Shown here piece by piece: positions 30,755 to 49,638 of a DNA stretch of 64,000 nt. This DNA is from Deltaproteobacteria bacterium (GTDB taxonomy: Bacteria > Myxococcota > Kuafuiibacteriia > Kuafuiibacteriales > Kuafuiibacteriaceae). A model generated the notes under the pieces. That model was not told the origin of the DNA. It worked only from the letters and a program-made list of their open reading frames with translations, and did no database searches. Made by a program: the position numbers and the translations under genes. The stretch spans positions 16,837-80,836 of the forward strand of contig JAVJQW010000040.1 of NCBI GenBank assembly GCA_040218735.1, written 5' to 3'. The stretch's first letter is position 1; the number at the start of each line of letters is the position of its first letter.

Positions 30755-33160
30755 TCACGGTGAGCCTCCACAGGACGGGCTCGAGTTGTTCGAGCAGAAT
30801 CGTTCCGCGTAGCCCTCGAATGAGAATGGGCCGATTCGAATCGGTTGAATACTCACATCGGCGCAGAGGCACCCGCGCAAGTTCTCATCGGTACAACTTA
30901 GGCCGATGGGTTGTGCGACGGATCCCTCTACGACGAGGCTTGCGCTCGCGCCTGGGGTCGCGACGCTACAGTCGCAGCATGAGCCGCCCGAAAAGGCGCC
31001 GTTCGTGCCCCGGCACTGGGAGCATTCGAGCACCCGCTTGATCCATCGAGTACACAATCGCGCAAAGCCGGAGCCACCGCCGTACACCGCAGCTCCGATC
31101 TCGGCGCACACGCCACCACGGCAGTCCGCCGGGGCGTCGCGACCCCGATGCGTAAGGAGTGTTCCGGCGGCGCGTGCCTCGATGCCAACCTCGTAGGTGA
31201 GGCCGATATCGAGCCCGGACCGCTTGCGGATCCTCGACCCACTGACGAAGGCTCCGATCGTCCCGGAGAGTGTGGCGTGGCAACACTGCGTCGCCGAATC
31301 ACAGAAGGCGAGCGGGGGCTCCTCGCACCGGAGCGTCGATGAACACGTGCGCTCCAGGCTCAACCGCGCGCGCGCTTGAATTGGGGTGGGCGGTATGCGC
31401 GCTTCGATGAACCCGGTTGCCATCGACGACTCGCCGCACATGCCGTCGTCGGTTAGCTCGCTATCGAGGTCGGTCGATACTCCGATGGCGAAGATCGAGG
31501 GAAGCTCTGCCGAGAGCTCGAAGGCTGGCACGACGGCCAGGGGTGGCGGCCCGCCCATCGTACACACGGCCGTTCCGTCGACACGTCCGGATGACGGAGC
31601 CAAAAGGATGGCCCACTCGGTCGGATTCGTCAGGCTCGCGGAGAAGGCCACCGAGCCCCGATCGTTGAATCCGGTGGCTCTGCCGTCATTCGTGGAGACG
31701 GAACTGGGCGGTGACGGGTTGATGACGGCACGTACGACACCGCCGAAGTCGACGGACTCACCGTGCATCACGATCGTATCCACCGCGGCGCTGCGTGAAA
31801 CGAAGAGCCCGCTTCCGTTCGAAGTCCTGGCTCCGAAAGCCAGTTGTCCGCGACGGTTGATCGCCGGAAGGGTGTCGAGCACGCCCATCGTTTCGCTCGG
31901 GTCTCCCGGGGCCGGATCACCCGGAACCCACACGACATCGAGTGTGTTCCCGGGCGGCGCTCCATCGAGCGAGTAGCCGACACTTCCTGGTGATCCGGAT
32001 ACGAGGTAGTTCCGCGCGTCGCTCGCTCCGAGCCACGCGACCATTTGGCCGGACCCGTGGGCATGACTGCGCGCGCCCACGGATGTGATCGTTGCACCGG
32101 TCCCGGATAGTTCTTGCCCCGTGACCAATACCGCATGGCCCGCGCTTGAAACTATGCCATCGCGGAACTCGAACCCAGAGCTCGTCGGGATTCGCAACTC
32201 CGCTGCAAAATACTGGGTGCCGCCGCTCCCGAAGATAGCCGGACCTCGATTGGCGCCCGTCGAGAGGCTGTAGATGATCGACGGCTCGTCCTCCTCGTTC
32301 TTCTTCTTGGCTGGTCGAACTGGAAGTCCGGTAAGCTCATCTCCGACCAAGACACTGGGAGTTGTTCCTAGGGCGTGGTAGGTCGGGCACGGCGTCGTGC
32401 TCGTCTGCACCAGCGCTACGCGATAACCGATGTGCCGGCCGCTGCTCAGTGCGACGTCGTACAACGCGGAGACTTCGCAGTTCTCGAAGGGGCCCGGATC
32501 TCCGATTTTCAGTACAGGTGAGAGCCCGCCCCCAGAGCTTCGAAAGACGCCGTACTGACCCATCGCATCCGTTGCCATCATGGCGACGGTTCCGCTCTGG
32601 TAGCGAATGAGATCGGAATAGAAGCTCTCGACGTCGGCGCCGCGCCGAGCCATGAGTCGAGCTCCGCTGGGCGTTCCCTCGAACAGACCGACGGACTGCC
32701 CTTCGGGTAGGGCGGGGCCCCTCAGCTGCGCGAAGAAGAGGACGTGGTCATTGCGTCCGGCCCATAGACTGTCACCACGGCTGTATTGCGGAAAACTCGC
32801 GAAGACTGTGCCGGACTCCGTACCCGGCGCTGGCTCTCCTTCGCGCGCGATGAGTTTGAGATCGTCACCGACGCATCCGGCTACCCATATCGCCTCATCG
32901 TCTTGTCCCACCGTGGGGCCTGATATCGACGCGCGGAATGCGACCCGATCGTCGGGCGACAGCGCAAAGTTGGCGACGCCGGTAAAGACGGCGCCGTCGG
33001 CGGCTGGGAGTTTGGGTTCGTCGAAGGCCGCCATGCCAGGCTCGACCACGATGCAGAGGGGCTCGGCGGCGGACGACGGCGGACTGACCGTGACAGATGC
33101 AGCCACCGCGACGACTGCCAGGGCATGTCCTTCGCGAAACTGCGAGATCATGTGACCCAC
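30755..33160 (-). CDS. Secreted protein with NxxGxxAF-type tandem repeats and a Cys-rich C-terminal domain
   Basis: Signal-like N-terminus; LIAREGEPAPG, AINRRGQLAF, FNDRGSVAF repeats; many Cys in the last ~270 aa. Confidence 0.7.
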   Translation of the reverse strand: MGHMISQFREGHALAVVAVAASVTVSPPSSAAEPLCIVVEPGMAAFDEPKLPAADGAVFTGVANFALSPDDRVAFRASISGPTVGQDDEAIWVAGCVGDDLKLIAREGEPAPGTESGTVFASFPQYSRGDSLWAGRNDHVLFFAQLRGPALPEGQSVGLFEGTPSGARLMARRGADVESFYSDLIRYQSGTVAMMATDAMGQYGVFRSSGGGLSPVLKIGDPGPFENCEVSALYDVALSSGRHIGYRVALVQTSTTPCPTYHALGTTPSVLVGDELTGLPVRPAKKKNEEDEPSIIYSLSTGANRGPAIFGSGGTQYFAAELRIPTSSGFEFRDGIVSSAGHAVLVTGQELSGTGATITSVGARSHAHGSGQMVAWLGASDARNYLVSGSPGSVGYSLDGAPPGNTLDVVWVPGDPAPGDPSETMGVLDTLPAINRRGQLAFGARTSNGSGLFVSRSAAVDTIVMHGESVDFGGVVRAVINPSPPSSVSTNDGRATGFNDRGSVAFSASLTNPTEWAILLAPSSGRVDGTAVCTMGGPPPLAVVPAFELSAELPSIFAIGVSTDLDSELTDDGMCGESSMATGFIEARIPPTPIQARARLSLERTCSSTLRCEEPPLAFCDSATQCCHATLSGTIGAFVSGSRIRKRSGLDIGLTYEVGIEARAAGTLLTHRGRDAPADCRGGVCAEIGAAVYGGGSGFARLCTRWIKRVLECSQCRGTNGAFSGGSCCDCSVATPGASASLVVEGSVAQPIGLSCTDENLRGCLCADVSIQPIRIGPFSFEGYAERFCSNNSSPSCGGSP

Positions 33161-33224
33161 GATGACATGTTCAGAGATACGCGACCACGCGGGGATCGCC
33201 CATCGACGGTGCGGATATCAGAGA

Positions 33225-34193
33225 TCAACTCCGGACGGCGGCGATGGTGTCGCGGATGAGCTGCGCCATCGCGTCGTTGCCCGCGCCCGAGAGGTGCAGG
33301 CCGTCGCCGCCGTCGGTGTTCGCGCCGGCGATCTGGGACCAGTCGGCCACGAACATGTTGGGGCGGCGCGCGGCTTCCTGCGCGATGACGTCGTTGATGG
33401 CGGCGTTGCCGTCGTAATACGACTGGCCGTAGCTCGCGCCGTTCGGGCGTTGGGTTTGGGTGTTGACCCACACCACCGTCGGCGGCGGGTTCAACGTGGC
33501 GAGCTGGTCCATCGTCTCCGGAACGAAGCGCGCGTAGTCGTTGTGGTTGCTGCCGAGCTCGAGGACGAGCACGTCGGCGCCGGACTGCTCGGCCATCTGT
33601 CGGATCTCTGCGGGGGAGACGTGGTGGCCTGCGCCGCTGCCGTTGATCGCGCGTCCGCCTGCGGCGTCGATGGTGACGTCGGCGGCGCCCGCGCCGCGCA
33701 GAGCGGCTTCGGTCTGCCCGCGCGCGCCGACCATGAGGGAGTCGCCGATGACGTGGACGTCGAGGTTCTCGAGGCCCTGGCCCGGCGGGAGGTTGGACGC
33801 CGCGGTCGGTGCGGCGCTCGGCGCCGTCGTCGGCGCGGGGGCGCCGCCGCTGCCCCAGGAGGTCGGCTGCGGTCCGTTCGCGAAGCTCGCGCCCGGGAGC
33901 TGACCGGCCTGTCGGGGCGCCGCGTCCTGCCGGTGCATGTCGTTCGCGAGGTAGTCGATCAGCAGGCTCACGAGCGCCGCGGTGGCGAGCGCCTCGAAAA
34001 ACTGCATCGGGTCCTGCTGCTGCTGAAGCCACGCCTGGATGTCGTCGTCGGGCGCCGCGCCGATGGTCGCCTGATCCTCGGGTGCGAAGAGCTGCGGGAG
34101 CGTCTGCTCGGCCGGCAGCAGGTCGGCCCACGGCTGCGCGGGGCCCCATAACCAAGGGTTCAGGACGCCGAAGTCATTCGCGCGCGAGACCAT
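33225..34193 (-). CDS. SGNH/GDSL hydrolase (OatA C-domain-like) with N-terminal extension
   Basis: IGDSLM, GGR, LGSNH, DGLH blocks; Q/P/A-rich N-terminus without a signal peptide. Confidence 0.85.
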   Translation of the reverse strand: MVSRANDFGVLNPWLWGPAQPWADLLPAEQTLPQLFAPEDQATIGAAPDDDIQAWLQQQQDPMQFFEALATAALVSLLIDYLANDMHRQDAAPRQAGQLPGASFANGPQPTSWGSGGAPAPTTAPSAAPTAASNLPPGQGLENLDVHVIGDSLMVGARGQTEAALRGAGAADVTIDAAGGRAINGSGAGHHVSPAEIRQMAEQSGADVLVLELGSNHNDYARFVPETMDQLATLNPPPTVVWVNTQTQRPNGASYGQSYYDGNAAINDVIAQEAARRPNMFVADWSQIAGANTDGGDGLHLSGAGNDAMAQLIRDTIAAVRS

Positions 34194-34248
34194 GCCGACA
34201 CGATGCCGGATGGTGTGGGTGAGTGTCGCTTACGCGGCGAACGTAAGG

Positions 34249-35262
34249 TCAGCGCCAGCCGTCGAGCGCGCCGGGCTTCACGCGGAGGTACAGCGCGCCG
34301 AACGTGTGGATCGCGCTGGTCGCCATCACCACGTGCTCCCCGACGTCGCGCCCCGCGGCGACCGCCTCGCGGAGGACGACGAACGGGTCCGCTGCGCCGA
34401 GGTGGCCGTAGCGGTCGAGCGTGCCGAAGGTTTGCTCGGGACCGAGGCCGATCGTCTCGCGCACGGCGGCGATCACCTTGGGGGCGGTCTGGTTCGTGAG
34501 CAGGAAGTCGGGTCGCTCGATGCCGGCGGCTTCACACACGTTGCGGATCGAACGCTCGTAGCTCGTGATGTAGACCGGCTTGAAGACTTCGACGAACTGC
34601 TCGCGGTCCGTGCACTGACGGCAGTGCATCCCTTCGCGCAGCGTCTCTTCACTCGGCGGGTTCCTCGTCCCGCCGGCCGGGATGAAGAAGTAGTCGTTGA
34701 GGTGCGGGTACGTGACGAACGACGCCGGCCCGATCTCGATACCTCCGCCCGCCCGCACGACCGCAGCCGCGCCGCCGTCCGCGTGACCGAGGGCCTGCGC
34801 GGGGCGCGTGCGTTCGTAGTCGATCGACGGCGTCCATCGCTCGGCCGCGACGATCAGCGCCGCGCGCGGTGTCGACGCGCACCACTTCTTCGCGATGTCG
34901 AGCCCGGTGAGGCCGCCCGCGCAGCCCGCCGCGAGGTCGTAGCCGAAGCCGTCGCGGATGCCGACCTCGTTCATGATCTTCGCGGCCATCGACCACGACG
35001 GGACGTAGTCGCGGCTGATGCTCACGCAGATGACGAGCCCAACGTCCTCGGGCGCGACCCCCGCGTGCTCCAGCGCGCGGCGCGCAGCGGCCGCGCCGAT
35101 CGTGGAGGGGTGATCGTCGGGGCCGCCAATCGCCTTCTCGCCTAGGCCGAGCTCCTCGCGGAGGACCTGCTCGTCGATGCCCGACCGGCGCGCGATCTCC
35201 GCGGCGGTCATCCGCCCCTCGGGGACGTGCACTCCGATACCCGCGATGCCGGCGCTCTCCAT
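34249..35262 (-). CDS. KAS III (FabH)-like thiolase-fold enzyme with non-canonical triad
   Basis: IAGIGVHVP, DLAAGCAGG (catalytic Cys), IPAGGT; NQTA replaces HQAN; GHLGAAD replaces GNT. Confidence 0.88.
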   Translation of the reverse strand: MESAGIAGIGVHVPEGRMTAAEIARRSGIDEQVLREELGLGEKAIGGPDDHPSTIGAAAARRALEHAGVAPEDVGLVICVSISRDYVPSWSMAAKIMNEVGIRDGFGYDLAAGCAGGLTGLDIAKKWCASTPRAALIVAAERWTPSIDYERTRPAQALGHADGGAAAVVRAGGGIEIGPASFVTYPHLNDYFFIPAGGTRNPPSEETLREGMHCRQCTDREQFVEVFKPVYITSYERSIRNVCEAAGIERPDFLLTNQTAPKVIAAVRETIGLGPEQTFGTLDRYGHLGAADPFVVLREAVAAGRDVGEHVVMATSAIHTFGALYLRVKPGALDGWR

Positions 35263-35298
35263 GGTCGTGTTCGAGTCTGCGCGGGATCGGACGAAACG

Positions 35299-36552
35299 TC
35301 ACGCGCCGCCGAAGACACCTTCGGCGAGTGTCCCGGCGCGTTCCATGCGCGGGTGCGCGTCGACCTCGCCGAGCAGCGCCTCGGAGGCGAGGACGGTGTC
35401 GAGCTCGAGTGTGTTCTTGATGCGCACGATGCGAGCGTCGGCGGGCGCGAGCCCGACGAGCGACCTCAGCGCGAGGTCGACCGCGATGCGTTCGGACGGC
35501 GCGACCACCGGGAGGCGCCCGGCTTCGATCACCGTCGAGCCGACGACGTTGGTGTACGTCGTCTTCCAGTCGATCGCTTCGAACAGCCGGTTGGTGATCA
35601 CGTCGACGAGGCCCACGCCGATCGCGTTGCCGTGGCTCGCTTCGGTGAGTCGCGTGACGACGATGCGTTCGATGAACGGCGCGAGCGCGCCGCGGACCGC
35701 GCCCTGTTTGCGGTCGGCGACGAGCGCGTCGAAGCCGGCACCGCTGATGTCCTTGCCCATCTCCTCGATCACGAGGACGTCGAGGCGGTCGAAGAGGAGG
35801 CGCCCCATCATCTGGCGGGCGACCTCGAGGAGCTCCGGCTCGCGGTCGAACATCCGCGCGCCCGCGAGCACCTCCGCGTCGGCGATGTGTCCGTAGGCGT
35901 CCTCGACGAGCGCGACGCCGAACAGGAACGGCGTCGCCGCGACGATCGTCTTCGCGACCTCTTCGAGGACGCCACAGAACGCGTCGGCCGGGACGTTCCC
36001 GTGCAGCGTCGACGCGCTCATGCGTTTGCCGGTCCCGACCGCGAGCATCTTCACGAGCCCGCTCTCGACGCGGCCGTGGAAGTGCGTGTGCGGTTTGATG
36101 CGGTTGACGAGGACGATGCCGTCGGCGTCGAGCGCCTCCGCGCCGACGTGTACGTCGAGGCCGCGCACCTGGCCGACGACCTTCGTGTCCATCGTGGCGC
36201 GGACCGGCGCGCCGACGGAGACCTCGTCGACGCCGAGCGCGGCGAGCACTTCGATCTGGCCGTCCGCGGTCGCGGCGCCGTGGGTGCCCATCGCGGGGAA
36301 GACAAACGGCTCGGCACCGGCGCGTTTCAGCTGTTCGACGACGGCGCCGACGATCGAAGCGATGCCCGGGATGCCGCGGCTGCCCACGCCGACGGCGATA
36401 CGTCCTGCGGCCTTCGGCTGCAGCGCGCCGATCTGCTCGGCGATGTGCCGCGCCGGATCTTCGAGCTCACGGCGTTCGAACGTCTGACGCACCGAGGCCA
36501 TGCGCGGCAGCGCGCGCGGCGCGCCCCAGTCGAGATCGAGATCGGCGAACAC
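35299..36552 (-). CDS. LarA-like / DUF362-type domain protein
   Basis: VGVGSRGI, PAMGTHG, NRIKPHTHF, ESGLVKM, GKDISG, SHGNAIGVG. Confidence 0.82.
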   Translation of the reverse strand: MFADLDLDWGAPRALPRMASVRQTFERRELEDPARHIAEQIGALQPKAAGRIAVGVGSRGIPGIASIVGAVVEQLKRAGAEPFVFPAMGTHGAATADGQIEVLAALGVDEVSVGAPVRATMDTKVVGQVRGLDVHVGAEALDADGIVLVNRIKPHTHFHGRVESGLVKMLAVGTGKRMSASTLHGNVPADAFCGVLEEVAKTIVAATPFLFGVALVEDAYGHIADAEVLAGARMFDREPELLEVARQMMGRLLFDRLDVLVIEEMGKDISGAGFDALVADRKQGAVRGALAPFIERIVVTRLTEASHGNAIGVGLVDVITNRLFEAIDWKTTYTNVVGSTVIEAGRLPVVAPSERIAVDLALRSLVGLAPADARIVRIKNTLELDTVLASEALLGEVDAHPRMERAGTLAEGVFGGA

Positions 36553-36554
36553 GG

Positions 36555-37088
36555 CTACAGCTCTAACAGGCGTTCGACCCCTTCGACGATCTGCTCGGCG
36601 CGTCGTTCGAGGAGCGCGTCGGAGACGTTCTGGATCGGGTGGTCGAGGACGATGCGCGGGAACGTCGCCTCGGGGCGCCAGTGGGAGAGGTGGCGCTCGA
36701 GCACGTCGACGAACGGCTCCGTCACGACGACGACCGCCGCTGCGCCTTTCAGGTGAAGTTGAACCGCGTCGAGCGAACCGCCCGCTGAGCAGCTCCCTCA
36801 GTCGAAGACGCCGAGGATCAGGAGGCCCTGCTCCTCGGCGATGCGCTCCAGGGTGTGGTCGCTCTCGCGACGGGTGATGCGCGCCTTCTTCGTGAGCCCG
36901 GTGATCTTCACGCCGCGCGCTTCGAGGCGGCGGCCGACGTCGTCCAGGATGCGGCGCGAGTTGGGTTTGCCGGAGTCGACGAAGTGCACCTCGCGGGTGT
37001 TCTTCGGCGTGTGAATCGGGAGCGGACGCGGGCGCGGCGTGGGGTTCGGATCGATCAGGATCTCACACTGCGGTTCGAAGTCGCGCAT
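36555..37088 (-). CDS. UGSC-family selenoprotein (Sec at the in-frame TGA, 36800-36798), 177 aa
   Basis: Minus strand GTC TTC GAC TGA GGG AGC TGC = VFD-U-GSC. The frame continues GSCSAGGSLDAVQL...VVVVTEPF...IVLDHPI...EQIVEGVERLLEL to TAG at 36557-36555, 2 nt before the next gene's start. Confidence 0.88.
36764..36797 (-). promoter_or_regulatory. Putative bacterial SECIS element
   Basis: After UGA: GGGAGCUGCUC AGCGGG CGG UUCGCU CGACGCGG. A stem-loop with a G-containing apical loop about 17 nt downstream of UGA. Confidence 0.6.
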
Positions 37089-37095
37089 CAGCAGG

Positions 37096-38133
37096 TCACC
37101 GAGTCCGGTCCATGATGAAGACCTCCGCGTCCGGTCGCAACTCGACGGCGTGGGTGATGTTGCCGACCCACCCCGGGATCACCGCGGAGAACTTCCCCGC
37201 GGCGCCGCCGGACTCGAGGAACGTGAGCTGCTCGTAGGACCGCAGCGGCGAGCGCGGCGCTTCGGGGTCGACGGACATCCGTGGATCCGGATCGGCGGGG
37301 ACCCGACCGAGTCGAACCAGCTCCGGGCCGGGGCGCTTCGAGTGTTCGAAGACGAAACGCCGCGCGTCGTCGCGATCGAAGGCCTCGCAGATCAGGCTCG
37401 CGTGCTCGGGTGCGAGCACGACGGTGTAGCCGCCCGTCTGCCAGTAGAAGTTGGTGGAGCCGTAGTGGGCGATCGTCCCGGCGATCGTCTCGAGGAGTAT
37501 CTCGGCGCTCGACGCGTAGTGGTTGTTGACGCTGTTCGGCCCCTCCGCGGCGGTGATGGTGATCGCGGATTGCTCGGGGTCGAGGCCGAACTGATCGTGA
37601 TACCGCGTCCACCGCGTCTGTTCGTGCTCCGCGACGCAGAACGAGATGCGCCCCGGGTGACCCAGCACGCCGAATTCTTCGAGGATGCCGCCGGCGCGCC
37701 CGCAGAAGTGACGCACCATGTTCGCGAAGCGCCCGACGGTGAGGTTGATGCGCGCGCTGCCGCCGAGGGTGTTCGCGCCGCTCGCGAAGCCGAGCTCTTG
37801 GACGATCGGCCCGCTGACGATCACCAACACCGCGCACCCGCCGGTCGTGACGGCGACGCCGTTGATGTTGAAGCTCGGCGCGAGCAACAGCCGAGTGAGC
37901 GGGCGTAGCACCGGCGCGTATTCGTCGCGGCACCCAGCCATCACGGCGATCGCCGCGACCTGGATCGCGCGCACTTCGAGCCCGTAGTCGTCGAGCTCGA
38001 CGAGGGTCTCGGTCGCCGACCACCCCAGCGCCGCGAGCATCGATTCGACGCGGCTCCCGTAGGGCGGGACGACCGGGAGGCCGTCGCTCCACCCGCGTTC
38101 GAAGCAGGCTTCGATGTCGTTGTCGAGCGCCAC
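37096..38133 (-). CDS. UGSC-associated protein of unknown function
   Basis: GWSDGLPVVPP, AVMAGC, VIVSGPI, TVGRF, EGP motifs of the family commonly found next to UGSC genes. Start trimmed to GTG 38133. Confidence 0.8.
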   Translation of the reverse strand: MALDNDIEACFERGWSDGLPVVPPYGSRVESMLAALGWSATETLVELDDYGLEVRAIQVAAIAVMAGCRDEYAPVLRPLTRLLLAPSFNINGVAVTTGGCAVLVIVSGPIVQELGFASGANTLGGSARINLTVGRFANMVRHFCGRAGGILEEFGVLGHPGRISFCVAEHEQTRWTRYHDQFGLDPEQSAITITAAEGPNSVNNHYASSAEILLETIAGTIAHYGSTNFYWQTGGYTVVLAPEHASLICEAFDRDDARRFVFEHSKRPGPELVRLGRVPADPDPRMSVDPEAPRSPLRSYEQLTFLESGGAAGKFSAVIPGWVGNITHAVELRPDAEVFIMDRTR

Positions 38134-38205
38134 GGTCGTCGCGTCGATTATGACTTCTCGGCTCCCCCAGTCCAATGGACGACGTTCTGCGGTAGGCTGC
38201 GCGCG

Positions 38206-38898
38206 ATGCGCACCGTGACGATCGCCGACCGCTTCCGAGGCCCGCCCGACTCTGCAAACGGCGGGTATGCGTGCGGCGTGGTCGCTGCGGCGCTCGAGAC
38301 GTCCGAGCCCGTGCAGGTCACGCTGCGGAGCCCGCCTCCGTTGGATACGCCGCTGTCGATCGTCGAGGTCGAGGGCGGTGTTGAGATGAAACACGGTGAG
38401 ACAGTCGTCGCCGAAGGGCGTACGAGCACGCTCGATCTCGAGGTGCCGGCGGCCGTGGATCGCGCGACGGCCGAGGTCGCGCAGAAGAACTTCGTCGGGT
38501 TCGAGAACCACTTCCTCCCGACGTGTTTTGTGTGCGGAACGAAGCACGAGCAAGACGGCTTGCGCATCTTCCCCGGGCGCGTCGAAGGGCGCGAGCTCGC
38601 GGCGGCTCCGTGGGATCCGACGCCGGACCTCTACGAAGGCGGGCGCATCGCGTCGGTGTTCATGTGGTCGGCGCTGGACTGCCCGTCGTGCTTCGGCGCG
38701 TTCATCACCGAGCCGGTGCTGCTCGGACGACTCGTCGCGCAGATCGACGAGCGGCCGCCCCAGGGGGAGAAGCTCGTCGCGGTGGGGTGGCCCATCGAGC
38801 GCGACGGGCGAAAGATCTTCGCGGGCTCGGCGATCTTCGGCGAGGACGGTCGGGTCTTGGGGAAGGCGTTCGCGACCTGGATCGCGTTCAAGCGCTGA
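38206..38898 (+). CDS. Double hotdog-fold thioesterase-like protein
   Basis: RFRGPPDSANGGY, LRSPPPLD, CFVCG, ALDCP, DGRKIFAGSA. Confidence 0.85.
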   Translation: MRTVTIADRFRGPPDSANGGYACGVVAAALETSEPVQVTLRSPPPLDTPLSIVEVEGGVEMKHGETVVAEGRTSTLDLEVPAAVDRATAEVAQKNFVGFENHFLPTCFVCGTKHEQDGLRIFPGRVEGRELAAAPWDPTPDLYEGGRIASVFMWSALDCPSCFGAFITEPVLLGRLVAQIDERPPQGEKLVAVGWPIERDGRKIFAGSAIFGEDGRVLGKAFATWIAFKR

Positions 38899-39672: not shown

Positions 39673-40767
39673 ATGCGTGTCGTTTCTCATCTGTTCAACC
39701 GTGACAGCAACAGTGACGTCTTCCGCTTCGGCAACCGGTCGTCGCTGACCCAGGAGCCCGGCGGGCGGTTCACCTTCCGGGCGGGGCCGGGTGACAACCG
39801 CATCGACGTCCGCAAGGTGTCCGGTCGCGAAGACGACTTCTACGAGGTGCGCGTCGACGACGAACGGTTCCGCCTCACGCAGGACCAGATGCGGCGTCTG
39901 ACGATCAAGGGCGGCGGCGGCGACGACACGATCCGCATCGACCCGAGCGTCGACGTCCCGATCCGCGTCGAGGGCAACACCGGCGGCGACACCATCATCA
40001 ACGGCTCGAACGGCGCCCACCTGGCCGGCGGCGACGGCAACGACTTCATCAGCAGCCACGGACACTTCGTCCGAATCCACGGCGGCGCGAAGGGTGATCT
40101 GATCGACGCTCACGGCAACGGCGTCGAGGTCCGCGGCGGGAACGGTAACGACACCATCAACCTCACCGGACGCGGGAACGTCGCGTACGGTGGCCTCGGC
40201 GCGGACGGCATCTCCGCCCAGGGCGACGGCCACGCGCTCTACGGCGGCGGCGGCGCCGACGATCTCGAGCTGCACGGCAACGGCGGGATGATGCGCGGCA
40301 ATCGCGGCCGCGATCGGCTGCGCGCCGTCGGCGACGCCAACGACCTCGGCGGCGGGCTCGGCCGCGACGTCCTCCGCGGCTACGGCGACGCGAACATCCT
40401 GCGGGGCGGCGCGGGAATGGACGACCTCGAGGTCCAGGGCTTCGGCAACCGGCTGCGCGGCAATACCGGGCCGGATCGCCTCCGCGCCGCGGGCGCGTCG
40501 AACCGGTTGGAGGGGGGCTGGGGCTACGACCTCGTCGAGGCGGTGGGCGCGTTCAACTTCGCCAACGGCGGGCCCGGTCCGGACGTGGTGAATGCCTTCG
40601 GGCCGGGCAGCTTCGCGACGGGCGGGCTCGGCTGGGACAACGTGAACGGGCAGGGGGCGTGGGGTGAGTTCTTCGAGGCGCCGTACCGTCACCCGGGGCG
40701 TCTGCTCGGGCAGATGATCTCGGCGGCCGACACGTTCCTGATGCGCGTCGCCGGCTGGGGCCTCTAG
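39673..40767 (+). CDS. RTX/hemolysin-type calcium-binding repeat protein
   Basis: More than 10 GGxGxD nonapeptide repeats, mostly in an 18-aa period; no signal peptide. Confidence 0.88.
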   Translation: MRVVSHLFNRDSNSDVFRFGNRSSLTQEPGGRFTFRAGPGDNRIDVRKVSGREDDFYEVRVDDERFRLTQDQMRRLTIKGGGGDDTIRIDPSVDVPIRVEGNTGGDTIINGSNGAHLAGGDGNDFISSHGHFVRIHGGAKGDLIDAHGNGVEVRGGNGNDTINLTGRGNVAYGGLGADGISAQGDGHALYGGGGADDLELHGNGGMMRGNRGRDRLRAVGDANDLGGGLGRDVLRGYGDANILRGGAGMDDLEVQGFGNRLRGNTGPDRLRAAGASNRLEGGWGYDLVEAVGAFNFANGGPGPDVVNAFGPGSFATGGLGWDNVNGQGAWGEFFEAPYRHPGRLLGQMISAADTFLMRVAGWGL

Positions 40768-43203: not shown

Positions 43204-46200
43204 ATGCACATTCGACTCACACCCCTGCTGATCGCGCTCGCCTGTCCCGTCACCGCCTGGGCCCAGACGGTCGTCCCGCCTGGAAACCTCGTGGGTTCGC
43301 AGACCTGGACCCCCGGCGCTTCGCCGTACGTGCTCGCCGGTGACCTCACGGTCCCGGCCGGCATCACGCTCACGATCCAGGCCGGCACCACCGTCACCCT
43401 CGGCCCGGGCGACACCCTCGGGTCGGGCTTGGACAGCGCGCGCACCGAGCTGTCGGTGCTCGGGACGATCGTCGTGAACGGGACGCCCGCGAGCCCGGTG
43501 ACGTTCGACTCCGGCGCGGTCGGCCCCGCGACGTCCGACTTCTACGGCATCGTGCTGCAGGCCGGGAGCACGGCGACGCTATCGAATGCGGTCGTCGAGC
43601 ACGGTCACCGCTGCATCGAGGACCACTCGACCGGAGCGACCATCACCAACGTCGACGCGATCGATTGCAGCTACGGCTACTACGTCGTCGGCGGCTCACC
43701 GACGATCACCGGCGGCGCGATCGAGGACGGGAGCAGCTACGGCATCTACGCGACGACGAGCGCCAACGTCACCGCGTCCGGGCTGCGTGTGCGGAACAAC
43801 TCCAGCTACGGCGTCTACGCGCTGAACGCTTCGTTCGCGCTCACCGGTTCGCTGATCGAAGGCAACGGCAGCCACGGCGTCTACTACCGCAGCTCGAGCG
43901 GCTCACACACGACGTCGCTCCAACACAACACGATCTACGACAACGGCACGTACGGCGTGTACCTCTACGAACAGTCCGGCACGTTGACGGTGACGATGCG
44001 CGACAACGTCGTGCTCGACAACAGCTCGACGGGCGTCGTGCGCTCGGGCTCGCCGATCTCCACCATCTCGCACAACCTCGTCTACGGACACTCCACGAAC
44101 TACTCCGGCGCCTCCCCGGGGACGGGCGGTGTCACCGAGAACCCGCTCCTCGTGAACGCGGCGAGCGGTGACTTCCGGCCGACTTCACGCTCGGGCGCGC
44201 GCATGGCGGCGTCGGACGGGATGGACATCGGCGCGTTCGCGTACGACGGCGCGGTGACGCCGGCGCTGGTCGGCCACCTGTTCGTCAACACGACGCTCAC
44301 CGCCGCGGCGTCGCCGCACATGGTGACGGGCGATCTCACGATCGAGCCGAACGTCACGCTCACGATCGAGCCGGGCGCCGTCGTCCGGTTTGCCTCGGGC
44401 ACGGATCAGATGGGCGCCAACGCGGACACGAGCCGGACCGAGCTTCGCGTCGCGGGTACCCTCGTCGCGGACGGGACCACCACGCTCCCGATCGTGATGG
44501 AGAGCGCCGCCGCGTCTCCGTCGCGCGGCGATTGGTATGGCGTGCACTTCTTGGCCGGCGCGTCGTCGTCGATCATCGACTTCGCGTCGATTCGCTTCGC
44601 GCGGTACGGCGTGCACAGCAACGCACCCGCGGGGACGACCGTGCAGCGTACGACGATCGAGGAGTCCTCCTCGTACGGCGTGTACGTCACGACCGGCGCG
44701 CTCGATCTCGACCAAGCGATCGTCCGCGACAACTCGAGCTACGGCGTCTACTACCTGAACGGGAGCGGCTCGATCACCGGCTCGCAAATCTACGACAACG
44801 GGAGCCACGGCGTGTACGCGCGCAGCTCGAGCGGGAGCCACAACGTCTCGATCCTCGGGAACACGATCGCCGAGAACGGCACCTACGGCGCGTATCTGTA
44901 CGAGCAGTCGGGCACCCTCACCACGACGTTCCGCGACAACCTCGTCCTATCGAACAGCTCGACGGGCGTGGTGCGTTCGGGCTCGCCGATCTCCACGATC
45001 ACCTACAACCTCGTGTGGGGGCACTCGACGGACTACTCGGGTGCGTCCCCGGGGACGGGCGGCGTGACCGAGAACCCGCTGGTCGTGGACCGGGTCGGCC
45101 GTGACTTCCGCGTGACCTCGAACTCCCCCGCGCGCAACCACGCGTCGGACGGCACGGACATCGGCGCCATCGCGTTCGACGGGACGCCGACGGTCGGCGT
45201 GCACGGGCACCTGTACACGAACACGACGTGGAGCTCGGTCGGCGGCCCAATCGATGTTCTCGGCGACATCACGATCGAGCCGGGCGTCACGCTCACCATC
45301 GCGGCGGGCACCGAGCTGCGCTTCGCGGCCGGCGCGGACAGCATGGGCGGAAACGCCGCGACGGATCGCACCGAGCTGATCGTGTTGGGGCGCCTCGTAG
45401 CGGACGGCACGACGCCTTCGCCGGTGGTCTTCCGCAGCGCGTCGACCACGCCCAGCCGGGGTGACTGGTACGGCGTGCGGCTCACGAGCTCTGCGGCGAA
45501 CTCGTCGATCGACAACGCCGAGATCAGCCACGCGCGTTACGGCGTCCATTCGCAGGCGCCGAACACCACCTCCGTCACGCAGTCGCGCGTGCACGAGTCG
45601 TCGTCGTACGGGATGTACATCGACGGCGGCGCGCTCGTCGTCGACGGCACGCGGGTCTACGACAACGGGAGCTACGGCGTGTACGCGCTCAACGCATCGG
45701 CGACGCTGACGAACCTCGTCGTGCACGAGAACGGCTCGCACGGGATCTACGCGCGCAGCTCGAGCGGCAGTCACAACGTCGTGCTCAACAACCTCACGGT
45801 CTGGAACAACGGGACGTACGGCGTCTATCTGTACGAGCAGTCCGGCACGTTGACGGTGTCGCTGCGGAACTCGATCGTCGCGGAGAACAGCTCGACCGGC
45901 GTCGTCCGATCCGGCTCCCCGATCTCCACGATCAACTACAACAACGTGTGGGGCCACACGACGGACTACTCGGGCGCGAGCGGCGGCACCGGCGCGATCA
46001 GCGCCAACCCGCAGTTCGTGAACACGATGCTCGACAACTTCTACTTGCTCCCGAGCTCCACGAGCATCGACGCCGCGGACCCGACGACCGCTGCCGCCTC
46101 GGACTTCGACGGCACGGCGCGCCCGCTCGACGGCAACGGCAACACGATGGCGGTGCCGGACCTCGGCGCGTTCGAGTACAACCCGTCCGCGAACCGCTGG

Positions 46201-49200
46201 CCGATCGCCGACGCCGGCTCCGACCGCGTCGTGACGAGCGGGCTCCCCGTCGCGTTCGACGGCACCGGGTCCTTCGATCCCGACGGCACGGTGATGAACT
46301 ACGTCTGGGACTTCGGCGATGGCTCCATGGCCTCCGGCGCGACGGTGATGCACACCTTCGCGGGCGGCACGGACCGCACCGTCACGCTGACGGTCACGGA
46401 CAACGCGGGCGCGATCGACGTCGACGCGATCGCGGTGGAGGTGAACCTCCCGCCGAACGCCGACGCCGGCCCGCAGCGCTTCGCGGACCCCGCGGAGATC
46501 GTCACGTTCAACGGCAACGGCTCCACGGACAGCGACGGGACGATCGTCGCGTACCTGTGGGACTTCGGCGACGGGGCCACCGCGAGCGGCCAGTCGGTCA
46601 CGCACCAGTACGCGACCGGCGGGCAGTACACGGTGACGCTCACCGTGACGGACGACGACGGCGCGACGGGCGTCGCGACGACGACCGCGAACATCACCGG
46701 AAACGACGGCGCGCCGCCGAGCATCGTGCACACGCCGATCACCGCAGCGCAGCCGGCGGGCACGGCGGTCACGATCTCCGCGGAGGTCACGGACTCGTCG
46801 GGTGTGGCGAGCGTCGCGCTCTACTTCCGGACGCAGGGGGCGCCCGCGTTCTCCGCGGCGCCGATGGGGAACACCGCGGGTGCGACGTACCAGGTCGACA
46901 TCCCCGCGGGCAGCGTCGCGGCGCCGGGTGTGGAGTATTACATTCAAGCGACCGACTCCGCGGCGTCGAGCAACACCGGCACGAACCCGCCGGGTGCGCC
47001 GGGCTCCGTGCACACGTTCACGGTGGCGGCGCCGGCCGGGCCGTCGATTACCCACGTGCCGGTGGGCGACGGGCAGGCGGCCGGGCAGTCCGTCGGCATC
47101 GCGGCGACGGTGACCTCCGGGACGCCGCTCGCCTCCGTCACGCTCTACTACCGAACGCAGGGGGGCTCGGCGTTCACGTCGGCGCCGATGACGAACACCG
47201 CGGGCGACGATTGGGCCGGGCAGATCCCCGGCGCCGCGGTCGTCACGCCCGCCGTCGAGTACTACCTGGAGGCGGTCGACACCGCGAACCCGGCGAACAC
47301 CGCGACGCATCCGGTATCGATGGGCGCGGTGAACGCGTTCACGGTGACGGCGAGCGATACTTCACCGCCCACGATCGTGCACACGCCGGTCGGTGACGGG
47401 CAGGCCGAGGCCACCGACATCACGGTGATGGCGACCGTGACGGACGGGACGGGCGTCGCGTCGGTCGAGCTGTTCTACCGCGTGTCGGGCGGCGGCGGCT
47501 TCGCGACCGCGGCGATGACGAACACCTCGGGCGACACCTGGACGGGCACGATCCCGGCGGCGTCGGTGACGCAGCTCGGCGTCGACTACTACATCGCGGC
47601 GGCGGACTCCGCGACGCCGTCCAACGCGGCGACCGACCCGACGGGTGCGCCGGGCGCGTTCCACGGCTTCACGGTGATGCGGCAGTTCACCGTCAGCGAG
47701 GGCGACCTCGTGGTCACCGAGGTGATGAACGACCCGACGGGCTCCGAGACGGACCGCGAGTGGTTCGAGCTGTACAACACGACGAGCGCGCCGATCGACA
47801 TCGACGGGTTCACGTTCGCGGACCTCGGTACCGACAGCTTCACGGTCAACGGCGGCGGCCCCGTCGTGGTGCCGGCGGGCGGCTACCTCGTGCTGGGGCG
47901 CAACGACGACACCGCGGCGAACGGCGGCGTGACGGTCGGGTACGTGTACTCGGGCATGGCGCTGTCGAACAACGACGACGAGATCATCATCAGCGCCGGA
48001 CCGACCGAGGTGGATCGCGTCGTCTACGATGCGGGCGCGACGTTTCCGAACACGCCGGGCGCGACGATCTCGCTGGACCCCGATCAGCTCGACTACACAT
48101 CGAACGACGACGGCGCGAGCTGGTGCGTCGCGACCTCGATGCTCGCGAGTGGTGACTTCGGGACGCCGGGCGCTCGCAACGATCCTTGCGTGCCCATCGA
48201 CGACACGGATCCGCCGATCGTCACCCACGTCCCGGTCACGGACGGGCAGCCGAACGGCGTCGCGATCCCGGTGGTGGTGGTTGCAACGGACGCGAGCGGC
48301 GTCGCGGTGGTCGAGGTCTATCACCGCGTGCGGGGCGGCGGCGCGTTCGAGGTGGCGACGCTGACGGACGTCGGCGGCGGGACCTACCTGGGCGAGATCC
48401 CGGCGACGTCGGTGACGCTCGCGGGCGTCGACTACTACATCCGCGCGGTGGACGACTCCGCGGTGTCGAACGAACGCTTCGCACCGACGGAGGCCGACGC
48501 GATGCCGTTCACGTTCGACGTCACGGCGATGGACGGCGCGGGCCCGTCGATCACTCACGTCCCGATCGCTGACGGTCGCCCGAGCGGCGTCGCGGTCGAC
48601 GTCTTCGCGCGGGTCCTCGATCCGTCGGGCATCGGCGCGGCGTCGGTCAGCTACCGCACCGGCGGCGGCGCGTGGATGACCGCGACGATGACCGACACCG
48701 GCGGCGGGCTCTACAGCGGGCAGATCCCGGCGGACGCGGTGACGACCGACGGCGTCGAATATTTCCTCGCGGCGGAGGACACCAGCGCAAACGCGGCGGA
48801 GTATCCGGTCGGCGGCGCGGCTTCACCGCTCGCGTTCACGGTGACGCTCGTCGACGTCGACGGCCCGGTGATCGCCCACACCCCGGTCGCGAATGGCCAG
48901 CCGGCGGGTGCCGCGGTGCCGATCGTCGCGACGGTCACGGACGAGTCGACCGTCGCCGAGGTGCGGGTGTATTTCCGCGCGACGGGGACGGCGTCGTTTG
49001 TCTCGGCGGCGATGACCGCGAACGGGGACATGTTCACCGGCGAGATCCCCGCCGCGCTCGTGACGGGCGGCGGTGTCGACTATTACCTGGAGGCGACCGA
49101 CGCGTCCGACGACCAGAACCTCTCGCGAGATCCCGAGGCGGCGCCGATGGCGGTGCACAGCTTCACGATCGCCGAGGACGGCGCGGACACGGAGGCGCCT

Positions 49201-49638
49201 GCGATCCTGCACCTCCCCGAGACGGAGACGACGGTGGGGACGCCGGTTTCGATCGTCGCGGAGATCGTCGACGCGTCGGGCGTCGCGACGGCCGAGGTCC
49301 TGTACCGCGCGCCGGGGTCGTCTTCGTTCGTGAGCCTCACGCTCGAGAACGAGGCGGGCACGAACCGTTACGCGGGCATCATCCCGGCGACGGCGGTCGT
49401 GGTCGGCCAGCTCGAGTACTACCTGCGCGCGCGCGACGGGGCGCCGGCGATGAACGAGGCGACGCGCCCCGAGGCCGCCCCGGACGAGGTCTTCGCGATC
49501 AGCGTCACCGCGAGCACGGGCACGGAGCCGCCGCCGGTCGACGACGGCGGGTGCAGCTGCGCCGCGGAACGTTCCTCGCGCGGTGGACTGTGGCTGGCCG
49601 TGGGGCTGTTGGCGCTGGTGCTGCGACGCCGACGCTGA
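43204..49638 (+). CDS. Giant surface protein (2144 aa): 3 beta-helix repeat units, PKD x2, 7 Ig-like repeats, lamin-tail domain, MYXO-CTERM-like tail
   Basis: Signal peptide; DLGAFE anchor-like motif; WDFGDG twice; VTEVMNDP...EWFELYN; tail GGCSCA...LWLAVGLLALVLRRRR. Confidence 0.93.
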   Translation: MHIRLTPLLIALACPVTAWAQTVVPPGNLVGSQTWTPGASPYVLAGDLTVPAGITLTIQAGTTVTLGPGDTLGSGLDSARTELSVLGTIVVNGTPASPVTFDSGAVGPATSDFYGIVLQAGSTATLSNAVVEHGHRCIEDHSTGATITNVDAIDCSYGYYVVGGSPTITGGAIEDGSSYGIYATTSANVTASGLRVRNNSSYGVYALNASFALTGSLIEGNGSHGVYYRSSSGSHTTSLQHNTIYDNGTYGVYLYEQSGTLTVTMRDNVVLDNSSTGVVRSGSPISTISHNLVYGHSTNYSGASPGTGGVTENPLLVNAASGDFRPTSRSGARMAASDGMDIGAFAYDGAVTPALVGHLFVNTTLTAAASPHMVTGDLTIEPNVTLTIEPGAVVRFASGTDQMGANADTSRTELRVAGTLVADGTTTLPIVMESAAASPSRGDWYGVHFLAGASSSIIDFASIRFARYGVHSNAPAGTTVQRTTIEESSSYGVYVTTGALDLDQAIVRDNSSYGVYYLNGSGSITGSQIYDNGSHGVYARSSSGSHNVSILGNTIAENGTYGAYLYEQSGTLTTTFRDNLVLSNSSTGVVRSGSPISTITYNLVWGHSTDYSGASPGTGGVTENPLVVDRVGRDFRVTSNSPARNHASDGTDIGAIAFDGTPTVGVHGHLYTNTTWSSVGGPIDVLGDITIEPGVTLTIAAGTELRFAAGADSMGGNAATDRTELIVLGRLVADGTTPSPVVFRSASTTPSRGDWYGVRLTSSAANSSIDNAEISHARYGVHSQAPNTTSVTQSRVHESSSYGMYIDGGALVVDGTRVYDNGSYGVYALNASATLTNLVVHENGSHGIYARSSSGSHNVVLNNLTVWNNGTYGVYLYEQSGTLTVSLRNSIVAENSSTGVVRSGSPISTINYNNVWGHTTDYSGASGGTGAISANPQFVNTMLDNFYLLPSSTSIDAADPTTAAASDFDGTARPLDGNGNTMAVPDLGAFEYNPSANRWPIADAGSDRVVTSGLPVAFDGTGSFDPDGTVMNYVWDFGDGSMASGATVMHTFAGGTDRTVTLTVTDNAGAIDVDAIAVEVNLPPNADAGPQRFADPAEIVTFNGNGSTDSDGTIVAYLWDFGDGATASGQSVTHQYATGGQYTVTLTVTDDDGATGVATTTANITGNDGAPPSIVHTPITAAQPAGTAVTISAEVTDSSGVASVALYFRTQGAPAFSAAPMGNTAGATYQVDIPAGSVAAPGVEYYIQATDSAASSNTGTNPPGAPGSVHTFTVAAPAGPSITHVPVGDGQAAGQSVGIAATVTSGTPLASVTLYYRTQGGSAFTSAPMTNTAGDDWAGQIPGAAVVTPAVEYYLEAVDTANPANTATHPVSMGAVNAFTVTASDTSPPTIVHTPVGDGQAEATDITVMATVTDGTGVASVELFYRVSGGGGFATAAMTNTSGDTWTGTIPAASVTQLGVDYYIAAADSATPSNAATDPTGAPGAFHGFTVMRQFTVSEGDLVVTEVMNDPTGSETDREWFELYNTTSAPIDIDGFTFADLGTDSFTVNGGGPVVVPAGGYLVLGRNDDTAANGGVTVGYVYSGMALSNNDDEIIISAGPTEVDRVVYDAGATFPNTPGATISLDPDQLDYTSNDDGASWCVATSMLASGDFGTPGARNDPCVPIDDTDPPIVTHVPVTDGQPNGVAIPVVVVATDASGVAVVEVYHRVRGGGAFEVATLTDVGGGTYLGEIPATSVTLAGVDYYIRAVDDSAVSNERFAPTEADAMPFTFDVTAMDGAGPSITHVPIADGRPSGVAVDVFARVLDPSGIGAASVSYRTGGGAWMTATMTDTGGGLYSGQIPADAVTTDGVEYFLAAEDTSANAAEYPVGGAASPLAFTVTLVDVDGPVIAHTPVANGQPAGAAVPIVATVTDESTVAEVRVYFRATGTASFVSAAMTANGDMFTGEIPAALVTGGGVDYYLEATDASDDQNLSRDPEAAPMAVHSFTIAEDGADTEAPAILHLPETETTVGTPVSIVAEIVDASGVATAEVLYRAPGSSSFVSLTLENEAGTNRYAGIIPATAVVVGQLEYYLRARDGAPAMNEATRPEAAPDEVFAISVTASTGTEPPPVDDGGCSCAAERSSRGGLWLAVGLLALVLRRRR
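43864..46010 (+). repeat. Three intragenic tandem units with a 933-nt (311-aa) period
   Basis: The block NGSHGVY.RSSSGSH...YEQSGTL...NSSTGVVRSGSPISTI starts at about 43864, 44797 and 45730. Confidence 0.85.

Follow-up and report, generated by a model that had tools for sequence, protein, structure and literature searches.

Introduction

In marine and freshwater samples, UGSC belongs to the most abundant selenoproteins, with 255 selenocysteine (Sec) forms and 21 cysteine forms in the Global Ocean Sampling (GOS) data (Zhang and Gladyshev 2008, PMC2398784). The same study noted a fusion of UGSC to a domain called "Unknown_1" (PMC2398784). UGSC is described as a selenoprotein without an assigned function (PMC2398784, PMC1976440, PMC5029168, PMC9312934, PMC13188914), and according to a 2026 review the family is still uncharacterized (PMC13188914). 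Where these papers speak of UGSC, they give no operon partners for it, only the fusion to Unknown_1. Here we analyze an apparent operon with a UGSC gene, from a stretch of 64,000 nucleotides (the window) of the genome of a Deltaproteobacteria bacterium of the phylum Myxococcota (assembly GCA_040218735.1, contig JAVJQW010000040.1, positions 16,837 to 80,836 of the forward strand). Four genes on the minus strand encode, in order, a protein that we will call the partner, UGSC, a LarA/DUF362-like protein, and a KAS III (FabH)-like protein with a thiolase fold. The partner and UGSC are a conserved pair. In one subfamily of this pair, a KAS III-like enzyme with a Cys-Asn-His active site is a regular third member, and we will call the three genes the triad. 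The LarA-like gene is a local addition. (Coordinates are positions in the window unless a contig or locus is given.)

The described systems that are closest in working principle are the glycine, sarcosine, betaine, and D-proline reductases of anaerobes. These combine a substrate-specific subunit with a small protein whose Sec is part of a U/C-x-x-C/U pair. In glycine reductase, the thiolase-like protein C ends with an acyl-thioester, and re-reduction is by thioredoxin. The triad is like these reductases in its working principle only: a Pfam scan detected no sequence relationship, there is no sign of a pyruvoyl subunit, the hosts do not appear to be fermenting anaerobes, and KAS III accompanies the pair in one subfamily only. 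The triad can also be compared to reductases that are fused to their own thiol reductant, such as methionine sulfoxide reductase-thioredoxin and peroxiredoxin-glutaredoxin hybrids. By analogy, the fusions of the partner (described below) would fit the same pattern of recycling by a dithiol or selenol-thiol relay. Unlike the domains of those hybrids, the partner domain belongs to no named family.

The partner and UGSC are a conserved pair

The partner gene (38133..37096, minus strand) has a GTG start codon and encodes 345 amino acids; this start fits the N-termini of the homologs. The UGSC gene (37088..36555, minus strand) encodes 177 amino acids, and a helix of the protein has Sec97-Gly-Ser-Cys100 at its N-terminus. 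Searching genome contigs with the single partner protein gave 1 locus. We used an alignment-based scan of metagenome contigs instead, which gave 80 loci with partners that are 50–58% identical. These 80 loci form 22 clusters at 80% partner identity, and one cluster holds 40 of them. Partner, UGSC, and KAS III genes were counted with tblastn; the counts of other neighbors come from clustering open reading frames (ORFs) and are rough (antisense frames, high-G+C loci).

UGSC adjoins the partner in 74 of the 80 loci and is present in 20 of the 22 clusters. Five of the six loci that miss it have under 260 nucleotides of sequence left after the partner, and the sixth is L107 (discussed below). Together with the existence of fusions between the two domains, this adjacency bears out the original prediction that UGSC and the partner are a conserved unit.

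We surveyed the fusions among 150 listed representatives of the partner profile, of which 35 were picked because they are longer than a lone domain. In fifteen of the 35, UGSC is fused to the partner domain, before it in some and after it in others; one of the 15 also has the catalytic domain of ferredoxin-thioredoxin reductase (FeThRed_B). The fusion P0111 has the partner domain and then UGSC, and it ends exactly before the Sec codon. An AhpC-TSA/Redoxin domain is at the N-terminus of five of the 35, and a pyridine-nucleotide-disulfide oxidoreductase domain (Pyr_redox_2) is at the C-terminus of one. No other family was found in the remaining 14. Fusions to UGSC and to redox domains are the signature of an enzyme that is recycled by a thiol/selenol relay. 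Together, the fusions and the adjacency of the genes suggest that the partner and UGSC bind each other. We suspect that the published Unknown_1 domain is the partner domain.

The redox-domain fusions of the partner are P0159, P0173, P0182, P0191, P0246, P0152, and P0252. Five other representatives (P0133, P0155, P0176, P0192, and P0232) appear to be tandems of two or three partner domains. We found no partner fusion longer than 605 amino acids and no KAS III-like fusion longer than 591 amino acids, which is weak evidence.

The N-terminus of the partner bears the motif GWSDGLPVVPPY. Its invariant residues include Cys10, a DGLPVxPPY motif, Cys68, His159, His205, and His244. A search for homologs gave 491 matches, and the best 120 of the 491 are 51–61% identical. 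The named homologs among these best 120 are "hypothetical" proteins from Kofleriaceae, Rhodocyclaceae, Pandoraea (including P. terrae), Nocardia sp., and Phytohabitans (including P. suffuscus), and many others are from metagenomes. With E up to 1e-3, a profile built from 33 members matches 4,387 representative clusters; with E up to 1e-30, it still matches 777. The partner matches no Pfam or NCBIfam family, and no Pfam family even at E up to 10. The original prediction had taken both UGSC and its GWSDGLPVVPP partner for recognized families: this is correct for UGSC, which is in Pfam, but not for the partner, which has no Pfam or NCBIfam model. The AlphaFold2 (AF2) model of the partner has a pLDDT of 84.3. 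The partner is probably the substrate-binding catalytic subunit; because its model has no convincing solved relative (see below), we base this role on the conserved residues.

In one subfamily, a KAS III-like enzyme is the third member

The KAS III-like gene of the window (35262..34249, minus strand) encodes 337 amino acids. Of the 80 loci, 59 have a KAS III-like gene; of the 51 with at least 2.2 kb of sequence downstream, 49 do. Counted by cluster, it is found in 15 of 22, and in the remaining 7 the sequence ends within about 1 kb downstream of the partner. Its position varies: 50 of these genes are downstream on the same strand, 4 are upstream on the same strand, 3 are upstream and divergent, and 2 are downstream and convergent. 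The proposed coupling of an atypical KAS III to the pair is therefore supported by these counts.

The protein from the window matches the Pfam families PF08545 (ACP_syn_III, 38.6 bits) and PF08541 (ACP_syn_III_C, 41.7 bits), both over the cut-off. All of the NCBIfam models for FabH score under their cut-offs (the best is PRK06840, with 188.7 bits against a cut-off of 315; TIGR00747 gives 114.9 against 292.1). The protein does resemble FabH in its thiolase fold, in the A-x-G-C-x-G context of the cysteine, and in that at least 300 residues align to solved FabH. In the alignment to FabH from Bacillus subtilis (8vd9), Cys114 is the nucleophilic cysteine, but His244 is replaced by Asn257 and Asn274 by His287. 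In other words, the histidine and the asparagine are swapped, the Cys-His-Asn catalytic triad for decarboxylative condensation is not matched, and we do not class the gene as FabH. All 55 of the triad homologs that cover the three positions have Cys, Asn, and His. (Across the triad homologs, the alignment of the residues with which FabH binds CoA is not reliable.) A housekeeping FabH-like gene is found elsewhere in the genome (on C70; 28% identity).

The KAS III-like gene in the window is not the ortholog of the KAS III that travels with the pair elsewhere. In a maximum-likelihood tree, 20 KAS III genes from triads form one clade (support 100/100), and the gene from the window is outside it. 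The window's partner, in contrast, groups with the partners from L028 and L029 inside the triad subfamily (SH-aLRT 93). A KAS III topology that matches the partner tree was rejected (the log-likelihood is 44 lower; p-AU = 9.7e-5). The grouping tested was taken from the partner tree, after the KAS III tree had been seen. The scores for PRK06840 differ as well: 188.7 bits for the gene in the window, versus 63–73 bits for three KAS III genes from triads. Among the other 400 genomes that we examined from the phylum (a tally that includes G195), there is no close relative of the window's KAS III-like gene, and the best match is 35% identical. Two of the best matches from the phylum, in L142 and L143, also have the Cys-Asn-His arrangement; they belong to a conserved cluster with methyltransferase, amidohydrolase, and TPR genes (see L152 and L153 below), and no UGSC gene is nearby. 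Because the window's gene is outside the clade from the triads, a second Cys-Asn-His lineage seems to have been recruited here. In our reading, the pair has recruited such an enzyme twice, which argues for a functional need rather than inherited synteny.

This bears on another explanation, in which the partner and UGSC are a general antioxidant or repair enzyme that acts with thiol and selenol groups (like a peroxidase, a sulfoxide reductase, or a disulfide reductase), and have nothing to do with the neighboring genes for the KAS III-like, LarA-like, and thioesterase-like proteins. The fusions of the partner to AhpC-TSA/Redoxin (5 of 35), Pyr_redox_2 (1), and FeThRed_B (1) would fit, as would the distant partner–UGSC pairs that lack KAS III (see below). 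UGSC is also classed with redox selenoproteins in two papers (PMC2398784, PMC13188914). However, the link to KAS III persists over four arrangements of the genes and at least 15 sequence clusters, and it was rebuilt in this genome with a non-orthologous Cys-Asn-His KAS III, and neither chance nor inherited synteny readily accounts for that. We consider this explanation unlikely.

In two genomes of the same phylum, Cys-Asn-His KAS III-like genes are found in L152 (7718-8710) and L153 (6583-7861), in a conserved cluster with genes for a methyltransferase, an amidohydrolase, and TPR proteins. In L153, a gene for an acyl carrier protein is directly after the KAS III-like gene, and the cluster includes a YcaO gene. 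These genes may make a natural product, as a small cluster of that kind.

Genes near the triad

The KAS III-like gene is often followed by selA, selB, and the gene for tRNA-Sec. The tRNA-Sec gene is near the pair in 28 of the 80 loci. Of the 22 clusters, 5 have selB in the vicinity, 3 have selA, and 2 have selD. In several clusters, the triad has neighbors that act on CoA-thioesters: acyl-CoA dehydrogenase, enoyl-CoA hydratase, an AMP-binding ligase, an ADP-forming CoA ligase, CoA-transferase III, thiolase, or a FadB-like gene. In 3 of the 22 clusters, the partner has a gene for a D-2-hydroxyacid dehydrogenase about 2 kb upstream.

Many aquatic contigs that are nearly identical to one another (L032-L043, L047, L049, L058, L060, L063, L092, L094, and others) have the partner, UGSC, the KAS III-like gene, selA, selB, and tRNA-Sec in that order. 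In the same group, a gene for an MFS transporter is divergent upstream and a gene for a PucR-type regulator is downstream. This arrangement looks like a portable cassette, of the selenocysteine trait plus a client.

Selenocysteine in UGSC

The UGSC gene has an in-frame TGA (36800-36798, minus strand). If it is read as Sec, then it is residue 97, in the context LLILGVFD-U-GSCSAGGSLD. The match to the Pfam family UGSC (PF24696; 90.7 bits against a cut-off of 25) covers residues 26-175 and spans the TGA. The protein has the D-U-G-S-C motif and the size of this family. It differs from the family in its score for the equivalog model NF041046 from NCBIfam, which is under the cut-off (79.9 bits against 125), so we consider it to be a divergent member. 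In a scan of Pfam at E up to 10, the UGSC protein matched UGSC and DUF2478 only.

Seventy UGSC homologs that are beside partner genes have sequence at this column; 67 of them use TGA there, and 3 use TGC. The host genome (11.6 Mb in 70 contigs) carries selA, selB, selD, and tRNA-Sec, and the copy in the window is its sole UGSC gene. The original prediction of a genuine selenoprotein is thus confirmed: the TGA is inside the Pfam match, the homologs have TGA or TGC, and the machinery is present. The selD gene (C18:152317-153240, outside of the window) itself has one in-frame TGA, which implies that the organism's Sec machinery depends on Sec.

A candidate selenocysteine insertion sequence (SECIS) hairpin begins at the UGA (36800-36770, minus strand). 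It has a 7-bp inner stem (36793-36787 with 36783-36777) and a 3-nt loop. Across 22 homologs, 97.9% of the cells in the stem are paired, versus 34–53% if the 3' partners are slid. The changes are wobble-compatible singles only, and much of this stem can also form in the three Cys-type homologs. No Rfam family matches the region.

The TGA could instead be a true stop codon or a disabling mutation, so that the product would be truncated at 96 amino acids and there would be no selenoprotein. That the SECIS hairpin is without support from covariation would be expected in this case. But the Pfam match and the high conservation run for 80 residues past the TGA; the codon in the homologs is TGA in 67 of 70 and TGC in the other 3; and the genome has the full Sec machinery. 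Also, the stretch is colinear in a metagenome from another study (see below), with no difference at the TGA among the differences listed; the same holds for the differences listed for four metagenome runs. We view a true stop as very improbable.

The AF2 model of UGSC (pLDDT 90.8) has a three-layer alpha/beta fold, like that of flavodoxin or CheY, with Sec97 at the start of a helix. As modeled, this is not the classical thioredoxin fold. Among solved structures, a fold search found only generic look-alikes (flavodoxin, CheY, TIR, and SIS).

The Cys-type (TGC) UGSC genes are in L059, L080, and L098. In L059, there is no KAS III-like gene within 8 kb upstream or 4 kb downstream.

The operon in the window

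As originally described, the four genes are co-oriented, all on the minus strand, with gaps of only 7, 2, and 36 nucleotides (partner/UGSC, UGSC/LarA-like, and LarA-like/KAS III-like, respectively). The G+C content of the locus is 68–70%. A scan of 33000-38600 found one sigma-70-like site, versus 0.2 expected from shuffled sequences, and no terminator-like site between the four genes. The promoter candidate (TGGACT-16-CATAAT, 38174-38147, minus strand) is directly before the start of the partner and is a consensus match only. Given the spacing, the four genes are probably co-transcribed.

A 69-kb metagenome contig from another study (run X2) is colinear with the window over 34000-38400, with 46 differences and no gaps, which indicates that the gene order is genuine and not an artifact of assembly. 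In a second metagenome run, shorter contigs span both junctions of the LarA-like gene. More broadly, near-identical copies of 34000-38400 are present in runs X2-X5, which are sponge, aquaculture, and biofloc metagenomes from several studies. These runs have a word share of 0.5–0.73, and X2 is about 99% identical over 4.4 kb.

The LarA-like gene is a lineage-specific insertion

The LarA superfamily consists of racemases and epimerases for 2-hydroxy acids that use nickel-pincer nucleotide (NPN) as their cofactor (PMC7583248, PMC11770544). Group 22 of this superfamily is not mentioned in the parts of these two papers that deal with LarA homologs (PMC7583248, PMC11770544).

The LarA-like gene (36552..35299, minus strand) encodes 417 amino acids. 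It matches the NCBIfam model NF052515 (nickel pincer cofactor-dependent isomerase, group 22) with 453.1 bits, over the cut-off of 400. It also matches the Pfam family DUF362 (30.3 bits against a cut-off of 24). In these respects, and in that the genome has larB, larC, and larE, the gene is like the LarA superfamily. However, it is very remote from characterized LarA, and Lar_N is below threshold (17.4 bits, under the cut-off of 23.3). In two other members of group 22, Lar_N scores 32–34 bits. Neither the protein nor a profile of 10 members of group 22 matches the sequence of any solved LarA. His91, His155, Lys168, and His184 are invariant in the 10 members. Lys168 and His184 are 16 residues apart and may be equivalent to Lys184 and His200 of LarA from Lactiplantibacillus plantarum, which have the same spacing.

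The suggested check of the genome for the genes that make the cofactor found all three of them: larC (C28:100529-101878), larB (C28:101911-102549), and larE (C70:345437-346216), each over its cut-off. Two further Lar_N genes in the genome could also use the NPN cofactor.

The original prediction held that the four families form an uncharacterized system. This four-family composition is not conserved: a group-22 LarA gene is near the triad in just 1 of the 80 loci (L096; 517 bits, 3 kb off, on the opposite strand). Similarly, when we checked for co-occurrence, the order of the four genes was not conserved in different species, but the core of three families was. The LarA-like gene is not part of the core; it was inserted between the genes for UGSC and the KAS III-like enzyme in this lineage specifically.

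Within our sample of 401 genomes from the phylum (including the window's genome), 11 have a group-22 LarA gene. We fetched eight group-22 loci from the phylum (L120-L127; 8–17 kb each), and none of the eight has a partner, UGSC, or KAS III gene. Their neighbors include genes for TctABC, sugar-type ABC, and TRAP transporters, members of the enolase superfamily, an IlvD/Edd dehydratase, and dehydrogenases of the 2-hydroxyacid and 3-hydroxyisobutyrate types. These contexts suggest that the LarA-like protein is a catabolic enzyme for hydroxy acids or sugar acids that was inserted into the operon. As far as gene context can tell, the role of group 22 points to a sugar-acid or hydroxy-acid epimerase. 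In three other genomes that have both families, the partner and the group-22 LarA are on different contigs. The group-22 gene in L096 and the 2-hydroxyacid dehydrogenases near the triad keep open a facultative link to 2-hydroxy-acid substrates. (An apparent LarA-like match beside a distant pair, in L128, was an artifact of a wrong-frame ORF that is rich in arginine and histidine, and was dropped.)

These results can be set against the idea that all four families are obligatory steps of one pathway, which would use selenium and nickel for redox, isomerization, and acyl-transfer reactions. The tight gaps and the single promoter-like site fit this idea, as do the same gene order in a close strain from another study and the presence of larB, larC, and larE. 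It would also account for L096, an independent lineage whose group-22 LarA gene is 3 kb from the triad, which is above the chance expectation for a family in 11 of 401 genomes, and for the 3 of 22 clusters with a D-2-hydroxyacid dehydrogenase gene upstream of the partner. But if LarA were an obligatory step, then it should be near the triad in more than 1 of 80 related loci; the group-22 loci of the phylum (8 of 8) have transporters and catabolic genes as neighbors instead of the triad; the two families are on different contigs in the three other genomes; and the cofactor can be used by the two further Lar_N proteins. We think an obligatory four-step pathway is quite unlikely.

Proposed mechanism

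We propose that the triad is a thioredoxin-linked selenol/thiol reductase that is joined to thioester chemistry, with the LarA-like protein as a local accessory. We hold this proposal with modest confidence, as somewhat probable. The partner and UGSC would be the ancient core, a selenium-dependent enzyme of several proteins. Sec97 and Cys100 of UGSC would be a redox-active U-x-x-C pair. The partner would bind the substrate, and UGSC would either give two electrons to the partner or form a covalent selenium intermediate with the substrate. UGSC would end as the selenenylsulfide and would be re-reduced by a system of the thioredoxin type.

A FabH-like Cys-Asn-His enzyme is the regular third component, which suggests that the chemistry passes through an acyl-enzyme or a thioester. 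We propose that the KAS III-like enzyme adds a thioester step (acyl-Cys114), with the thioester as either substrate or product, and that the reaction thereby supplies CoA-thioester metabolism or draws from it. The usual KAS III gene may have been swapped in this genome for another Cys-Asn-His lineage of KAS III-like enzymes. The group-22 LarA homolog is predicted to be a nickel-pincer isomerase of 2-hydroxy acids, and its probable role is to provide a hydroxy-acid substrate in the right stereoisomeric form.

Several observations count against this proposal. We found no gene for thioredoxin or thioredoxin reductase in the scanned neighborhood in the window. No solved structure is a convincing relative of the partner: Foldseek ranks class I fumarate hydratase first (E = 1.4e-3, TM 0.3), and the best VIA-align match has a Z of 6.3 and covers only a C-terminal sub-domain (residues 195-325). 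The SECIS candidate shows no covariation, with no compensatory double changes in the 22 homologs, and shuffled sequences were uninformative. L059 and L106 have room for a KAS III gene yet lack one, and in L107 the partner is followed directly by KAS III, so that UGSC is missing from its usual place. In L152 and L153, KAS III-like genes with Cys-Asn-His are not near a UGSC gene at all. The enzymes of CoA metabolism near the triad are common types of genes, and the counts of neighbors are rough.

The distant relatives of the pair also weigh against it. A relative of the partner is found in 12 of the 401 genomes from the phylum, including the window's; in the other 11, it is only 30–38% identical. 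UGSC-like genes (with D-U/C-GSC) are beside 6 of 14 paralogs of the partner from the same phylum (26–38% identical), in 5 distinct places, as two of the loci overlap. These distant partner–UGSC pairs have no KAS III gene in the 5–18 kb that we fetched (up to about 8 kb on each side). The thioester step is thus not general to the partner–UGSC pair. Rather, the pair seems to be ancient, and the link to KAS III belongs to one subfamily.

We also considered that the triad might work like glycine reductase, as an aerobic counterpart of the clostridial glycine and proline reductases. The partner (as protein B) would load an alpha-substituted acid covalently onto Sec97; UGSC would be the carrier, like selenoprotein A; and after reductive cleavage, the acyl group would be passed to Cys114 of the KAS III-like enzyme (as protein C) and released as an acyl-thioester that enters CoA metabolism. 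U97 and C100 would form the selenenylsulfide, which thioredoxin would reset. A 2-hydroxy or 2-oxo acid is a candidate for the substrate because genes for LarA and for D-2-hydroxyacid dehydrogenase have been recruited nearby.

This would explain why there are three components, including a Sec protein with U-x-x-C and a thiolase-fold enzyme with a catalytic cysteine. It would also explain the thioredoxin-type fusions in the wider family of the partner, the CoA-thioester enzymes downstream, and the recruitment of enzymes for 2-hydroxy acids. However, UGSC and the partner show no similarity to GrdA, GrdB, PrdB, GrdE, or PrdA (in Pfam at E up to 10), and there is no sign of a subunit that forms a pyruvoyl group. 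The deeply diverging partner–UGSC pairs lack KAS III. And judging from the names of the homologs, the hosts are apparently aerobic bacteria from soil or water. A mechanism like that of glycine reductase therefore seems improbable to us.

Flanking genes

A divergent gene (38206..38898, plus strand; 230 amino acids) is upstream of the partner and is probably a thioesterase of the hotdog fold. The gene itself is as originally described, but the thioesterase label rests on look-alikes from language models and structures. It has no match in Pfam or NCBIfam and no sequence match in the PDB. The nearest clusters in the ESM Atlas are named thioesterase or PaaI (feature scores 0.96-0.98, TM 0.94-0.96), and PF03061 is found on 11% of the members of one Atlas cluster near it. 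A homolog (48% identical) is present in only one of the 80 loci (L028), where it is 0.7 kb past the KAS III gene and on the same strand.

An ORF that is weakly similar to GDSL/SGNH hydrolases (34193..33225, minus strand) begins 55 nucleotides downstream of the KAS III-like gene. Its score for the Pfam family Lipase_GDSL_2 is 28.1 bits, under the cut-off of 32.9, and none of the related loci contains a homolog. From its spacing, it could be a fifth gene of the operon.

The remaining neighborhood is unrelated: it encodes prolyl-tRNA synthetase, a protein of the metallo-beta-lactamase fold, surface proteins, and a glyoxalase-like protein. An ORF at 39673-40767 (plus strand; 364 amino acids) is rich in glycine/aspartate repeats like G-G-x-G-x-D and has no Pfam match. 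A protein of 2,144 amino acids (43204-49635, plus strand) has beta-helix, NosD, PKD, and lamin-tail domains, and an 801-amino-acid DUF7453 protein (30755-33160, minus strand) has a Cys-rich C-terminal part. Both of these look like surface or secreted proteins that are unrelated to the operon.

Significance

As originally stated, there seems to be no described pathway with this composition: we found no published description of it, and in the full-text literature nothing relevant that combines UGSC with ketoacyl or oxoacyl. What is new here is the conserved third component and its Cys-Asn-His site, the fact that a non-orthologous gene takes its place in this genome, and the setting among enzymes of CoA-thioesters.

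In the literature cited above, UGSC has been without an assigned function for nearly twenty years (PMC2398784, PMC9312934, PMC13188914). The thiolase-fold enzyme with its catalytic cysteine, together with the enzymes of CoA-thioester metabolism, gives the first chemical handle on the family: it suggests thioester or acyl-enzyme chemistry, and it defines a set of three proteins. The occasional LarA and 2-hydroxyacid dehydrogenase neighbors suggest the class of substrate. If the triad is in fact a counterpart of glycine reductase, then one of the commonest orphan selenoproteins of the oceans and soils would have a function, and it would be clear why selA, selB, and selC travel with the triad. 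In many lineages, the genes for the Sec machinery (selA, selB, tRNA-Sec, and sometimes selD) are beside this unit, so the unit may be the main reason that these bacteria keep Sec.

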